A stretch of 27,463 bases of DNA from a virus. Taxonomy: Duplodnaviria; Heunggongvirae; Uroviricota; Caudoviricetes. The DNA is taken from IMG/VR virus record IMGVR_UViG_2545824714_000008; one strand, 5' to 3'. The translations under genes and the position numbers were made by a program. Positions 1 through 22,766 of the stretch are shown one piece after another. Each line of letters begins with the position of its first letter. Position 1 is the first letter of the stretch. The notes under the pieces are model-generated. The model had not been told where the DNA came from. It searched no databases and saw only the letters and a list, made by a program, of their open reading frames with translations.

Positions 1-352
1 AGTTTTTTAAGTGACGTAAAACCGTGTTGAGGCCAACGCCCATAATGCGGGCAGTTGCCCGGCATCCAACGCCATTCATGGCCATATCAATGATTTTCTG
101 GTGCGTACCGGGTTGAGAAGCGGTGTAAGTGAACTGCAGTTGCCATGTTTTACGGCAGTGAGAGCAGAGATAGCGCTGATGTCCGGCAGTGCTTTTGCCG
201 TTACGCACTAGCGCTGATGTCCGGCAGTGCTTTTGCCGTTACGCACCACCCCGTCAGTAGCTGAACAGGAGGGACAGCTGATAGAAACAGAAGCCACTGG
301 AGCACCTCAAAAACACCATCATACACTAAATCAGTAAGTTGGCAGCATCACC
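1..352 (-). mobile_element. IS1 insertion sequence, partial (about the first 350 bp including terminal inverted repeat and insA; continues beyond window start)
   Basis: Reverse complement of 247..352 reads GGTGATGCTGCCAACTTACTGATTTAGTGTATGATGGTG...GTGGCTTCTGTTTCTATCAGC, matching the IS1 end and insA start as I recall them. Reverse complement of 1..60 matches the insA 3' region with a few substitutions. Confidence 0.85.
171..246. repeat. Perfect 38-bp tandem duplication (171..208 = 209..246) inside the IS1 insA reading frame
   Basis: Both copies read tagcgctgatgtccggcagtgcttttgccgttacgcac. The junction creates CGC-TAG in the insA frame on the minus strand. Confidence 0.9.
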
Positions 353-455
353 TAATGACGTCAGATTTGCCGTAAACCTGGATGCCTTATCGCGTAGCGG
401 TGTAAAGGTCAACCCGGATGTCTTAATGCTCGCACGGAAGAAAAATGATGGATAA
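353..455 (+). pseudogene. yfiR: yfiR 3' remnant (periplasmic repressor of DgcN), truncated by the IS1 insertion
   Basis: The frame translates ...[33 protein letters not shown], overlaps the dgcN start in typical operon fashion, and begins abruptly at the IS1 end with an in-frame TAA at 327..329 inside IS1. Confidence 0.75.
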
Positions 456-1671
456 CGATAATTCTCTTAATAAGCGCCCCACGTTTAAAAGAGCATTACG
501 CAACATCAGTATGACCAGCATATTTATCACTATGATGCTGATCTGGTTGCTGCTTTCCGTGACCTCGGTGCTGACCCTGAAACAGTACGCGCAAAAAAAC
601 CTGGCACTGACAGCAGCAACAATGACTTACAGTCTGGAAGCAGCTGTCGTTTTTGCCGATGGCCCTGCAGCAACTGAAACACTGGCAGCGCTGGGCCAGC
701 AAGGGCAATTTTCAACTGCAGAAGTACGTGATAAGCAGCAAAATATTCTGGCATCCTGGCATTACACCCGTAAGGATCCAGGCGATACTTTCAGTAATTT
801 CATAAGCCACTGGCTCTTCCCTGCCCCCATCATTCAGCCGATTCGTCACAATGGTGAAACCATTGGCGAAGTACGCTTAACCGCTCGCGACAGTTCAATC
901 AGCCATTTTATCTGGTTTTCGCTCGCCGTACTGACCGGTTGTATTCTGCTGGCATCAGGCATCGCAATTCCCCTCACCCGCCATTTGCACAATGGCCTGG
1001 TAGAAGCGCTGAAAAATATCACCGATGTCGTACATGATGTGCGTTCCAACCGCAATTTTTCCCGACGAGTTTCGGAAGAACGTATCGCTGAGTTTCACCG
1101 CTTCGCTCTCGACTTCAACAGTCTGCTGGATGAAATGGAAGAGTGGCAGCTTCGTTTACAGGCTAAAAATGCGCAGCTTCTACGTACCGCGCTACATGAC
1201 CCATTAACCGGGCTGGCTAACCGCGCAGCGTTTCGTAGCGGCATCAACACGTTGATGAACAATTCCGATGCCCGAAAAACGTCGGCGTTACTATTTCTTG
1301 ATGGCGATAATTTCAAATACATCAATGATACCTGGGGTCATGCGACGGGCGATAGAGTCTTGATTGAAATCGCAAAACGGTTAGCTGAATTTGGCGGGCT
1401 GCGACATAAAGCATACCGCCTGGGCGGCGATGAATTCGCTATGGTGCTCTATGATGTACAGTCGGAATCTGAAGTGCAGCAGATATGTTCAGCACTGACA
1501 CAAATCTTTAATCTCCCGTTTGATCTTCATAATGGCCATCAGACCACCATGACATTAAGCATTGGTTACGCGATGACCATTGAGCACGCCTCTGCGGAAA
1601 AATTACAAGAGCTTGCCGATCACAATATGTATCAGGCCAAACACCAGCGTGCCGAAAAGCTGGTGAGATAA
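445..1671 (+). CDS. dgcN: Diguanylate cyclase DgcN/YfiN (membrane-anchored, HAMP plus GGDEF domain)
   Basis: 408-aa ORF with N-terminal hydrophobic segments, an RLGGDEF-type motif ([12 protein letters not shown]) and the yfiR-yfiN-yfiB operon context. Confidence 0.93.
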
Positions 1672-2621: not shown

Positions 2622-3431
2622 GTGTCAAAAAAGGATACAATCCAGATTATCGATATCAGGATGCAGAGACCAATCATAGCAAGAATAGAAGAAGAAAATT
2701 TAAATTTGACATTGCAAATGTCAGATAAAGCCACATTATCTGGTGCGACAGTTAGTTTTTTCACCCCAAATAACGTTTCTATATTCTTATCCTCAGCAAA
2801 AAAAGAGCTCTCAAAATCCAATTCTATATATAAAAGTCTTTTTGGAAAAATACACAAAACCAAACATAAAAACTTTAAAATTTCCGACAAAGCCCTGCCG
2901 AGACTCTATAATTACTTTGAATCAATTCAGACGGCCATTATTTCTATGTATACTGCAATTGAGTCTTTTGCAAATATATGCATACCACATGATTATGTTT
3001 ATGAAAAAAACAATGCCAAGGGAATCAAAGAATCCTATAGCAAAGAGCTAATTGAGCGATATATACCAACAAGTGAAAAAATAGATAAAATCCTACCGTC
3101 TATTTTAAATTGTGATTCGCCTAAAGGTTCAAAACTATGGCAAGATTTTAAAAGCCTTGAGTCACTTAGAAATGACATAATTCACCCCAAGACAACAAAG
3201 AAAAACACAGAAACAAAAGAAGACTCATCTTTTTTATGCATTTTACTATCAGATGACTTTATAAAAAAAGTTTCCTGTGGATTTGATTTGGTATCTTATT
3301 TTTGCAAACAAGACACTACTCATAGTCTTTTCCCAATGGGTTTCGGTGAAATTGAACTTAAACCTGTCCCAATTAAAGCCGGTGACTTTGAAAAAGTTGA
3401 TGATCATGATGAAATAGAATTACCATCATAA
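2622..3431 (+). CDS. Hypothetical protein, low-GC orphan (about 269 aa from GTG 2622; the ORF opens at TTG 2586)
   Basis: Long uninterrupted ORF in markedly AT-rich DNA with GGAG 6 nt before GTG 2622. Contains an R-x4-H stretch (LRNDIIHPK). No family recognised. Confidence 0.6.
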   Translation: MSKKDTIQIIDIRMQRPIIARIEEENLNLTLQMSDKATLSGATVSFFTPNNVSIFLSSAKKELSKSNSIYKSLFGKIHKTKHKNFKISDKALPRLYNYFESIQTAIISMYTAIESFANICIPHDYVYEKNNAKGIKESYSKELIERYIPTSEKIDKILPSILNCDSPKGSKLWQDFKSLESLRNDIIHPKTTKKNTETKEDSSFLCILLSDDFIKKVSCGFDLVSYFCKQDTTHSLFPMGFGEIELKPVPIKAGDFEKVDDHDEIELPS

Positions 3432-3547: not shown

Positions 3548-4588
3548 TTAATCTTTCCATTTAAAACCATTACATAATGTTAAAGGATTAAATGTTACAG
3601 CCTCCTCAAGATGATCCGGGGAGAAATGTGCATACTTCATAGTTTCACGAATATTCGCATGACCGAGTATACGTTGCAGCACAAGAATATTCCCGCCATT
3701 CATCATAAAATGAGCGCCGAAGGTATGACGCAGAACGTGTGTCTTTTGCCCTTCCGTCAGTTCGATATCCGTTAGTTTGAGCATCTTTTTAAACTCCTGA
3801 TAGCAAGGCTTAAACATCTTTCCCTGCCTTTCAGATAATTCGTCATACAACCATTTTGGGATCGGAACGGTTCGATTCTTTTTCCCTTTCGTTTTGGTGA
3901 AGGTCAGTTTATGTGGCGAGAGCTGGGGACGTGTCAACCTCTCAGCCTCACCCCATCTAGCACCTGTTGCAAGACAAATCTTAACAATCATGGTGAGGTC
4001 TTCTTTTCCGTATTGCTCGCATGCCTGAAACAATTTCGGAATTTGAGACAAAGTGAGCCAAGACATTTCTTTCTCGGCTTCCTTGAAAACACGGACTCCA
4101 TCAAGTGGATTTGGTAAGCTCCACTCCCCTAGCCTTTTGAGCTCATTAAATACAGCCTCAAGATATTGTTGCTCACGATTGACAGTTATCGGTTTAGCAA
4201 TCCATTTTGCCGGGTCTTTATGATAGCCATTATCTATCTCCCCCCGAAGTCGGCGGTCACGGTAATGAGCCCAATCTTTAGCAGTAAGGCGGGATGCAAT
4301 AGGGTCACCAAGTCCATTACACACGATTTGAAGTTTAGCTAACCGCGACTTACTGGCGACCAGTGCCTGTCCGTGTAAATTATGCCAAAGCTGGATAATC
4401 TCACTTAAGCGTCGGCGGTCTTCTTTCTTGCCGAGCCACGGCTTATCCTCACTCTCACTTTTCGTAAATGCTTCGAATGCCTCGGCCTCACCTTTGGTAT
4501 TGAATTGCCGACGTATACGCCGCCCTTCTCGACCATTTGGATAGAGCTCGCATAACCATTTGCCATTTTTTTGCTTACTTACAGTCAT
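3548..4588 (-). CDS. int: Phage integrase, tyrosine recombinase (P2 Int family)
   Basis: 346-aa ORF with the C-terminal catalytic region (HVLRHTF ... LGHANIRETMKYAH) at the prophage end, downstream of the repressor. Confidence 0.9.
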   Translation of the reverse strand: MTVSKQKNGKWLCELYPNGREGRRIRRQFNTKGEAEAFEAFTKSESEDKPWLGKKEDRRRLSEIIQLWHNLHGQALVASKSRLAKLQIVCNGLGDPIASRLTAKDWAHYRDRRLRGEIDNGYHKDPAKWIAKPITVNREQQYLEAVFNELKRLGEWSLPNPLDGVRVFKEAEKEMSWLTLSQIPKLFQACEQYGKEDLTMIVKICLATGARWGEAERLTRPQLSPHKLTFTKTKGKKNRTVPIPKWLYDELSERQGKMFKPCYQEFKKMLKLTDIELTEGQKTHVLRHTFGAHFMMNGGNILVLQRILGHANIRETMKYAHFSPDHLEEAVTFNPLTLCNGFKWKD

Positions 4589-10638: not shown

Positions 10639-10707
10639 AACGCCGCCGGTGCTGAAACTTGCTTTCAGTGCTGGCGGGGTTGAACAACTCGCACCGCGAG
10701 GCGCTAG
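10639..10707 (+). repeat. 69-bp structured repeat, copy 1 (imperfect dyad CCGCC..CTGAAA / TTTCAG..GGCGG)
   Basis: About 86% identical to 11044..11112 and starts 2 nt after a stop codon. Confidence 0.7.
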
Positions 10708-11043: not shown

Positions 11044-11112
11044 AACGCCGCCGGAGCTGAAACTCGCTTTCAGGTCTGGCGGGGTTGAACAACGAGCTAC
11101 GCGAGGCGTTAG
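11044..11112 (+). repeat. 69-bp structured repeat, copy 2
   Basis: Same dyad as copy 1 and starts 2 nt after the stop codon. Confidence 0.7.
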
Positions 11113-11933: not shown

Positions 11934-12938
11934 CTAATTTACATGTATGTAGAGTTCACCGTCGCCAGACCAATCGGGACACTCTAAAACAAGCCCAAAC
12001 TGCTTGAATATTTCATCAATGATTATTGTTATCTCCCGAAAATCACCAAAACCTGTAATGTGCTGGTCATTAAACTTCCCATAAAGATTCTGAAAAGCAA
12101 TGCCTAATTCTGATAATTGATATCTTATCTTTGAGTTGGATAGTGTAAGGGATAGCTTTGGATCGTATTCTTTAATATTGATGTTTAGAGAATGGACATA
12201 ACCCATCGCATAAGCATAAGAGTTGATGATTAGCCTGATACGTTTTTTTACTTCAAGATACATGTCATTCAGAGAAATATTACCGTACTTATAACCCCAG
12301 ATGAGTTTTTCAATCTCGTCAGATACTTCATTTACAACAGTGTCAAGATTCTCTAAAAATAAATCGACAGTTTCTTGAGGGGCAGACCCCGAAGACATGT
12401 AATTAGCGAGATATTCAGACCATGCACGCGTGGCTGAGATAAGAAGCGCGCTACCATACTCGTTGACTGTAAAGTTTTGGGCTAAGCATGTTAGTAAGTT
12501 TTTTTCATGTACGTGCACTAATTCATGGTGAATGCGATGGATGACTGCGAGGTATCCTTCTTCTTTCAGTTTTAAGAAGCTACCATCATTGAAAAGCTCA
12601 ACAAAAAAATCAATCGATAGCACAAGGGTATATTCTTCATATAGCCCATCATTGCCAATTTTTGTTACTAACTGCCCGACGGCTGCGCCCTGTTTGCTAT
12701 TGGTAAATGAACTAGGGGATTTGTGTTGGTAAGAGGATGTTACCTTTTGAAGAGCTTCACTGAAGTTATAGGAAACAATCACGCATTTTAATTTGGAGAT
12801 ATCAAGATTGAGATTCTTTGTTAAAGCTCGGATAGCTTCTAGTGTGAAATTACCGATATTATTTGCTTCTTGCTCAGTAGCGAAACCTTCGAGGGTTATT
12901 TTAAAATCAGTTTCCAAAATATTAATCTCCGCGCCCAT
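11934..12938 (-). CDS. Orphan 334-aa protein in a low-GC insertion between cos and the portal gene (candidate accessory/defence gene)
   Basis: Uninterrupted ORF in AT-rich DNA, co-oriented with portal and terminase. Contains an HHELVH (HExxH-like) stretch and no obvious membrane segments. No Shine-Dalgarno evident. Confidence 0.65.
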   Translation of the reverse strand: MGAEINILETDFKITLEGFATEQEANNIGNFTLEAIRALTKNLNLDISKLKCVIVSYNFSEALQKVTSSYQHKSPSSFTNSKQGAAVGQLVTKIGNDGLYEEYTLVLSIDFFVELFNDGSFLKLKEEGYLAVIHRIHHELVHVHEKNLLTCLAQNFTVNEYGSALLISATRAWSEYLANYMSSGSAPQETVDLFLENLDTVVNEVSDEIEKLIWGYKYGNISLNDMYLEVKKRIRLIINSYAYAMGYVHSLNINIKEYDPKLSLTLSNSKIRYQLSELGIAFQNLYGKFNDQHITGFGDFREITIIIDEIFKQFGLVLECPDWSGDGELYIHVN

Positions 12939-21890: not shown

Positions 21891-22766
21891 CTAGCCTCGT
21901 AAATATCGTTTAGTAAATTTCGTGTTTGGTCTGGATGATAGGATTTGTCTTTCTATTTCACTATCACAGTCTATATAGTCTAGTGTATTAGCTTCTATAA
22001 GTTTGTTCACGTCAATATTTTTTGCATCGATTATGTTGGCATTTCTAAGGTTTGCATTGGTGTATTCCACTTTATCCAAATCACACTCTCTGAGTACGCA
22101 ACTTTTCATTTCCGCATTGGAAAAATCCCCACCATATAAATAGCAGCCTTCAAAAATAACACCGTTTAACTTTGAATCCTGAGCTTTAATATTTTTTATT
22201 TTACACTTTATAAATTTTACGTTTTTCATTTTGCTCTTGCTAATATTTAATGCCTGGATTGTACATCCAGTGAAAGAACAGTCTCTTATGTTAGATTTTT
22301 CCATATTTAACCCAGATAGTTCTGAGGTTTTAAAGTGTAAGTATTTAATGGTAAAAAGGTCACCCAACTCCATTCTGGGTATGTCTATATTGAAGACACC
22401 TTTATTGTTGAGCTGTCTTATTATTTTTATTTTTTGTATTTTCAAATCAACATTAACGTGCTTAGCTAAGTTTCCCAAATCCTCAAGAAGTTCATTAATC
22501 GTTTCTTTGTTTTGTCTTCTGTATTCAAAGTAATAAAGGATGACACCTAATACAAAAAAATCCAAAATGGATGAATTTGCATTTATTAGGAACCCAGACA
22601 GGAATGAATCATTGTAATTACCATAGTGTATAGAGGCAAGTGTTACGCCAAATGCATATAAAATAAAAATAATAAACACGTGCTTCATTTTGCATAAGGA
22701 TTGTATTATTGGTTTTATGGCATCAATTTTGTTCATTGCTGCAGCAGCGAAAGATTTAAAAGTCAT
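21891..22766 (-). CDS. Membrane-anchored pentapeptide-repeat protein, low-GC cargo at the S/V junction
   Basis: 291 aa with two N-terminal hydrophobic segments (HVFIIFILYAFGVTLASI, ILDFFVLGVILYYF) and about 19 consecutive pentapeptide-like units in the C-terminal half. AT-rich and on the opposite strand to the tail genes. Confidence 0.7.
   Translation of the reverse strand: MTFKSFAAAAMNKIDAIKPIIQSLCKMKHVFIIFILYAFGVTLASIHYGNYNDSFLSGFLINANSSILDFFVLGVILYYFEYRRQNKETINELLEDLGNLAKHVNVDLKIQKIKIIRQLNNKGVFNIDIPRMELGDLFTIKYLHFKTSELSGLNMEKSNIRDCSFTGCTIQALNISKSKMKNVKFIKCKIKNIKAQDSKLNGVIFEGCYLYGGDFSNAEMKSCVLRECDLDKVEYTNANLRNANIIDAKNIDVNKLIEANTLDYIDCDSEIERQILSSRPNTKFTKRYLRG

Follow-up and report, generated by a model that had tools for sequence, protein, structure and literature searches.

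Insertion sequences of the IS1 family (IS1A/IS1B-type) found in Escherichia coli and Shigella share a left inverted repeat, an insA gene encoding a zinc ribbon and an HTH domain, and an A6C motif, and IS1 insertion generates a target-site duplication of 8–10 bp, typically 9 bp. Two described phenomena can leave a short perfect repeat inside such an element. Tandem duplications that arise by replication slippage are perfect head-to-tail copies of a few dozen bases that can shift a reading frame, and they usually form between short direct repeats. False tandem duplications that arise when an overlap is left unmerged are a known class of error in draft genomes. The locus described here, at one end of a contig of 27,463 bp (the whole stretch analysed, hereafter the window), has to be compared with all three. 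It has the left inverted repeat, the insA frame with its two domains and the A6C motif of IS1, and it differs from other IS1 elements of this type in that nt 107–144 are present twice, that insA meets a stop at codon 30 and that the contig holds only nt 1–314 of the element.

The window is the entire contig APZM01000076.1 of assembly GCA_000356885.2, from Escherichia coli BCE006_MS-23. This enterotoxigenic (ETEC) isolate of sequence type ST2353, with CS1, CS3 and CS21, came from an asymptomatic person in Bangladesh, and its reads are SRR488686 (PMC5469772, Table S1). It was sequenced on a HiSeq 2000 with 100-bp reads, and Celera Assembler was used (PMC5469772); the draft is dated 2012–13. The same paper also describes assembling each genome with SPAdes 3.6. 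Both ends of the contig fall in repeats, the left in IS1 and the right in the tail-fibre region of a P2-like prophage. The contig starts within IS1 at nt 314, just past the A6C motif. The 38-bp repeat therefore sits in a draft contig less than 250 bases from its end, in an element for which the chromosomes of related strains have about 40 places each.

A first-pass annotation had claimed that positions 171–208 and 209–246 are identical, and this is borne out. Tandem Repeats Finder gave a period of 38, 2.0 copies, 100% matches and no indels for 171–246, and the same two copies were recovered by a separate repeat search of the window. In a sequence of 27 kb, chance cannot account for a perfect tandem copy of 38 bases. 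The repeat ends abruptly, with mismatches between bases 170 and 208 and between bases 209 and 247, and thus lacks microhomology at its ends. In IS1 coordinates the duplicated unit corresponds to nt 107–144, and the 30-mer across the junction reads GCCGTTACGCAC followed directly by TAGCGCTGATGTCCGGCA. The features of the window are collected in table 1.

Table 1. Features of the 27,463-bp window; nt numbers in the remarks are IS1 coordinates.
Feature	Position	Strand	Remarks
Left part of IS1	1..352	-	nt 1-314 plus extra 38 bp; matches the 768-bp IS1 annotated in relatives
A6C -1 programmed frameshift motif (AAAAAAC)	2..8	-	from sequence; relatives annotate a programmed frameshift
Restart frame	1..208	-	GTG start; InsA residues 18-86; runs off contig end
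Distal copy of 38-bp unit	171..208	.	IS1 nt 144-107 on + strand; opens terminal 208-bp piece
Truncated insA	208..297	-	GTG start at 297; 29 codons; junction TAG at 210-208
Proximal copy of 38-bp unit	209..246	.	IS1 nt 144-107; ends piece running into unique flank
IS1 left terminal inverted repeat	330..352	-	exact GGTGATGCTGCCAACTTACTGAT on minus strand, ~23 bp
yfiR 3' remnant	354..455	+	left by IS1-associated deletion; overlaps dgcN start
dgcN (diguanylate cyclase)	445-1671		intact
269-aa protein, cargo-like	2622-3431		weak YopA_C match
334-aa hypothetical protein, cargo-like	11934-12938	-	
Pentapeptide-repeat protein, cargo-like	21891-22766	-	

The outer boundary of IS1 lies at window position 352. 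Apart from the 38 extra bp, only nt 1–314 of the element are present, and insB' and the right end of IS1 lie outside the window (insB' is present at the same locus in the related strain E1739). A reconstructed, intact InsA matches the Pfam families PF03811 (E = 5e-20) and PF12759 (E = 4e-31). In the contig as deposited, the TAG created at the junction overlaps a GTG (TAGTG), which starts a frame for InsA minus its first 17 residues. The coding capacity of insA is thereby divided: the 29-aa product covers only positions 1–28 of the 35 in the Zn_ribbon_InsA profile, while the 69-aa restart frame holds the remaining ribbon positions and HTH_Tnp_IS1 (Pfam) and is without the first Cys-x2-Cys of the zinc ribbon. 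The claim that InsA ends after about 28 codons is confirmed as to the premature stop, the exact figure being 29 codons. The accompanying claim that the InsAB' frameshift product is blocked also stands, as ribosomes that set out from the insA start would stop at the TAG before they reach the A6C site.

The closest relative of the strain is the ETEC isolate E1739, also from Bangladesh. Window positions 209–27463 align without a gap to 1774–29028 of the corresponding E1739 locus (L012), and positions 1–208 align with 100% identity to 1604–1811 of the same locus. In E1739, exactly 38 bases are shared by the two alignments, and the 38 bp are the sole length difference from E1739 over 27,463 bases. 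The yfiR::IS1 insertion itself is common to 38 complete genomes, including O6:H16 ETEC, and in the genomes inspected (E1739, E54 and E1535) a normal IS1 transposase with a programmed frameshift is annotated at yfiR. An intact insA of 91 aa is also found at this locus in the sibling draft JOQM01000032.1, from the same sequencing centre.

At this site (window 330–455; E1739 locus L012 1150–2020), IS1 has taken the place of 575 bp: 10 bp from the end of yfiL, the region between yfiL and yfiR, which carries the operon promoter, and 416 bp from the start of yfiR, a gene of 519 bp. A target-site duplication is absent from the E1739 flanks (...CACAATACG, then IS1, then TAATGACGT...), which share no direct repeat. 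The lesion fits a deletion of adjacent DNA associated with IS1, and not a simple insertion, and the missing target-site duplication does not argue against the identity of the element as IS1. Loss of yfiR with retention of dgcN would leave the cyclase without its periplasmic inhibitor, YfiR. Both dgcN and yfiB are intact.

A P2-like prophage lies just downstream of yfiB, at about 2200–27463 of the window, with its integrase at 3548–4588 on the minus strand. The possibility that the contig is chimeric downstream of yfiB was rejected, as a P2-like prophage occupies the same site in E1739 and E1535; a 4-kb query gave a single mismatch, at window position 2893, in both genomes. The prophage differs by 10–11 bases from the copies in E1739, E1535 and JKHS016, and the contig end in its tail-fibre region adjoins a degraded recombinase gene. 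The prophage also carries a pair of direct repeats (10639–10707 and 11044–11112; 69 nt, 87% identical, 405 bp apart) between dinI and small hypothetical genes, each with a GC-rich inverted repeat. An Rfam scan of the window, these 69-nt repeats included, gave no family at threshold.

The distribution of the junction was examined with a 48-mer centred on it, with 24 bases in each half, and with a 28-base seed that had to span the junction. Of 5,426 complete E. coli genomes, which hold more than 78,000 IS1 places for the normal sequence, none matched this query, and neither did any of 72,556 plasmids. A 36-mer across the junction likewise had no match in the GTDB species representatives or in JGI metagenome contigs, and three junction-dependent ORFs (36–41 aa) were missing from a collection of approximately 15 billion proteins.

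Some database entries resemble the products of the duplicated element. The GenBank proteins ENB31013.1 and ENB40868.1 equal the 69-aa partial InsA; we rejected them as evidence for the duplication elsewhere, since the same V18 GTG start is often called in normal IS1, where a 74-aa form occurs on 111 contigs, including those of genomes from the same centre. An InsA fragment identical to the 29-residue product (P0091) is annotated as 'partial' on 976 contigs, mostly of Shigella sonnei and including a 4.67-Mb record. These matches are not diagnostic of the junction, since partial proteins need no stop codon, and their probable source in Shigella sonnei is contig ends, or an IS1 copy interrupted near nt 142–144. 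One additional contig that was checked (CATUFS010000117.1 of GCA_958328985.1; 396 bp) proved to be an unrelated IS1-in-IS1 fragment without the junction, in which a divergent IS1 type is inserted in another IS1 at approximately nt 83. The end of that contig lies at the A6C motif and falls short of the window's starting point by a single base. This suggests that a point shortly beyond the motif is where IS1 types commonly diverge and where assemblies break.

The position of the duplicated unit was then compared with the sites at which IS1 copies of this lineage vary. A second IS1 type, ydjK::iso-IS1, is 100% identical in E1739, E54 and E1535 and is conserved in other relatives. It differs from the yfiR type at nt 4, 40, 45, 53–55, 64, 65, 70, 76, 82, 88, 91, 100, 103 and 106, which amounts to 16 differences in 106 nt, and beyond this point the differences become sparse (157, 178, 196, 253 etc.). 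The duplicated unit begins at nt 107, directly after the last of the dense differences. On its IS1 side the proximal piece, whose other end runs on into unique DNA, stops at nt 144, that is 106 + 38; the distal piece begins at nt 107. It is from nt 107 onwards that reads of the two types become indistinguishable. The length of the unit also bears on assembly: the default minimum overlap of Celera is 40 bp (PMC4053942), a value from which the centre's own setting may differ, and 38 is 2 bp under that default and also k-1 for a graph with k=39. Among other contig ends, that of JOQM01000032.1 switches to another IS1 type beyond nt 261, and that of a second sibling draft, APXE01000149.1, would lie at nt 261, among clustered variant sites, if it is without the duplication. 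These ends are consistent with breaks driven by variant sites.

The quality of the contig consensus could be judged against the same relatives. The window carries 11 substitutions relative to E1739, at positions 970, 2893, 6114, 8005, 8082, 9808, 13648, 17666, 24247, 24975 and 25887. At the 10 sites in the prophage, the E1739 base is present in all seven other genomes, including prophages of unrelated strains that are 96–98% identical, and the window alleles are therefore private and derived. Position 970 appears ambiguous in polarity, the window base being the allele usual in other lineages and A being found in JKHS016 as well as in the closest relatives, and it was excluded from the securely private changes. 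When adjusted for strand, the substitutions comprise seven GG[T>G], one GGG[A>G] and three G:C>T:A, and 10 of the 11 are non-synonymous (e.g. portal T139P, capsid F246S and tail protein I W57G). The change GGT>GGG is the dominant systematic error of Illumina sequencing, and the sites of such errors are highly replicable between experiments (PMC3295828). Similar changes are seen in the sibling drafts, with five in 11.9 kb of APXE01000149.1 (isolate 2730450), one of which makes a stop, and six in 13 kb of JOQM01000032.1. Each sibling shares one site with the window (24975 for APXE01000149.1 and 2893 for JOQM01000032.1), in a non-nested pattern.

The eleven substitutions are most likely Illumina/Celera consensus errors, to judge from their sequence context and distribution. 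Nearly all of them are A:T>C:G or G:C>T:A, as a mutT or mutY mutator strain would produce, but this explanation was rejected in view of the seven GG[T>G] changes and of single sites shared in a non-tree-like manner among isolates that were sequenced separately. At approximately four differences per 10 kb, the draft consensus is unreliable. The stop in APXE01000149.1 (10935 of locus L022) is a C>A change that makes TAA and splits a tail-fibre gene of the prophage into ORFs of 109 and 193 aa; it is probably a further consensus error of this sequencing project. The substitutions now exist as distinct RefSeq/UniRef proteins, for example WP_001508810.1 and WP_001508811.1. Logan is not listed as the source of any private variant protein, an observation that counts only weakly given that its index may not hold SRR488686.

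Taken together, we put the probability at roughly 85% that the duplication is an assembly artefact, in which two overlapping pieces were joined with their overlap unmerged, and not a feature of the chromosome. The observations behind this reading are the sequence facts of the repeat, the uniqueness of the junction, the coincidence of the boundary with the variant sites, the method of assembly and the poor consensus. In outline, the contig leaves unique DNA (the yfiR remnant and dgcN) and enters an element of about 40 copies, of which a second, divergent type exists. The assembly would there split in two, into a type-specific piece ending at nt 144 and a shared repeat piece beginning at nt 107. 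The true overlap of these pieces, 38 bases from nt 107 to nt 144, falls below the default minimum of 40 bp and would go undetected, and concatenation of the pieces without merging would leave nt 107–144 written twice. A join of this kind would explain the perfect identity of the copies, the lack of microhomology, the length of the unit, its position at a contig end and its exact start. The locus is like other false duplications from unmerged overlaps in its perfect copies, in the absence of microhomology, in a length under the 40-bp overlap, in lying at the end of a contig in a multi-copy repeat, in starting at a variant boundary and in having a unique junction. It differs from them in one respect, in that we infer the abutting of the pieces inside the assembler from the published method rather than from assembly logs or reads; a lack of junction reads would likewise be expected.

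Several points count against the artefact. An overlap-layout assembler should normally merge such pieces or leave a gap between them, and other joins in the same IS1 are clean, both where the flank meets nt 1 and at variant sites 157, 178 and 196. No variant site was identified at the outer end of the contig (nt 314), and the distal part agrees base for base (100% identity) with the IS1 type that belongs at this locus. Small perfect tandem duplications are, moreover, a genuine class of spontaneous mutation.

The last two of these points also speak for a real, private 38-bp duplication in the yfiR::IS1 of BCE006_MS-23, produced by replication slippage or template switching, which we regard as unlikely. 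The perfect duplication stands in the deposited record, both of its flanks (and not the distal part alone) match the correct IS1 type at 100%, and assemblers do not as a rule invent a junction without some support in reads. In its head-to-tail arrangement, its length of a few dozen bases and the shifted frame, the repeat resembles the products of slippage. It departs from them in that its endpoints share no base, which is unusual for slippage, and in that its start coincides with a variant boundary relevant to assembly. A real mutation would also have had to fall within the terminal 250 of 27,463 bases, for which the chance is about 1% (1 in 100), and to start exactly at the nt 106/107 boundary, for which it is between about 1 in 300 and 1–2%. 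Its junction is unique among all the collections searched, and it would be read from a contig that carries many consensus errors.

Considerably less probable is a junction that was present in some reads and came from elsewhere (a different IS1 copy among the approximately 40, a subpopulation or a chimeric library fragment), and that the assembler used to extend the end of the contig. The junction lies 144 nt inside IS1, beyond the reach of a single 100-bp read anchored in the unique flank (PMC5469772), and the switch of type beyond nt 261 in JOQM01000032.1 shows that contig ends in IS1 do borrow reads from other copies. However, neither a random chimera nor a mutation in another copy is expected to begin at nt 107, and the junction is missing from every IS1 copy in the complete genomes of the lineage. 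Nothing was found in favour of the duplication as the mark of a natural IS1 variant family present in several copies or strains, and this reading is excluded at the depth searched by the zero junction matches in the 5,426 E. coli genomes, the 72,556 plasmids, GTDB and the JGI metagenomes.

The first-pass annotation had interpreted the duplication as a local lesion that left a non-autonomous IS1 copy, likely fixed in place unless helped in trans. As biology this finds no support: the junction is absent from every other genome and plasmid searched, IS1 is intact at the same locus in relatives, and the repeat lies at a contig end in an element of many copies, in a draft whose consensus can be shown to contain errors. 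Even for a real duplication, fixation would be a weak conclusion, since the approximately 40 IS1 places on each relative's chromosome could supply transposase in trans. The same annotation had mentioned an assembly artefact as a secondary suggestion, and it is this suggestion that the evidence favours, by way of the uniqueness of the junction, the variant boundary, the contig-end position and the consensus errors.

The locus carries a caution for the use of older short-read drafts, in which contig ends that fall in multi-copy IS elements can hold invented duplications as well as base errors. Such errors reach protein databases as 'variant' or 'partial' proteins, of which END57248.1 and WP_001508810.1 are examples. 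The pattern seen here, a perfect copy without microhomology, with a length just under an overlap parameter and a start at a variant boundary, could serve to flag comparable loci automatically. If the duplication were real, its consequences would be ordinary biology, with InsA cut at codon 29 and InsAB' prevented from the normal start. This would be one disabled copy among about 40 IS1 in a single isolate, of small biological significance. Such a copy would stand where the yfiR promoter and most of yfiR once were, upstream of dgcN, as an element frozen at a c-di-GMP regulatory locus, with a possible restart product that is missing half of the zinc ribbon.
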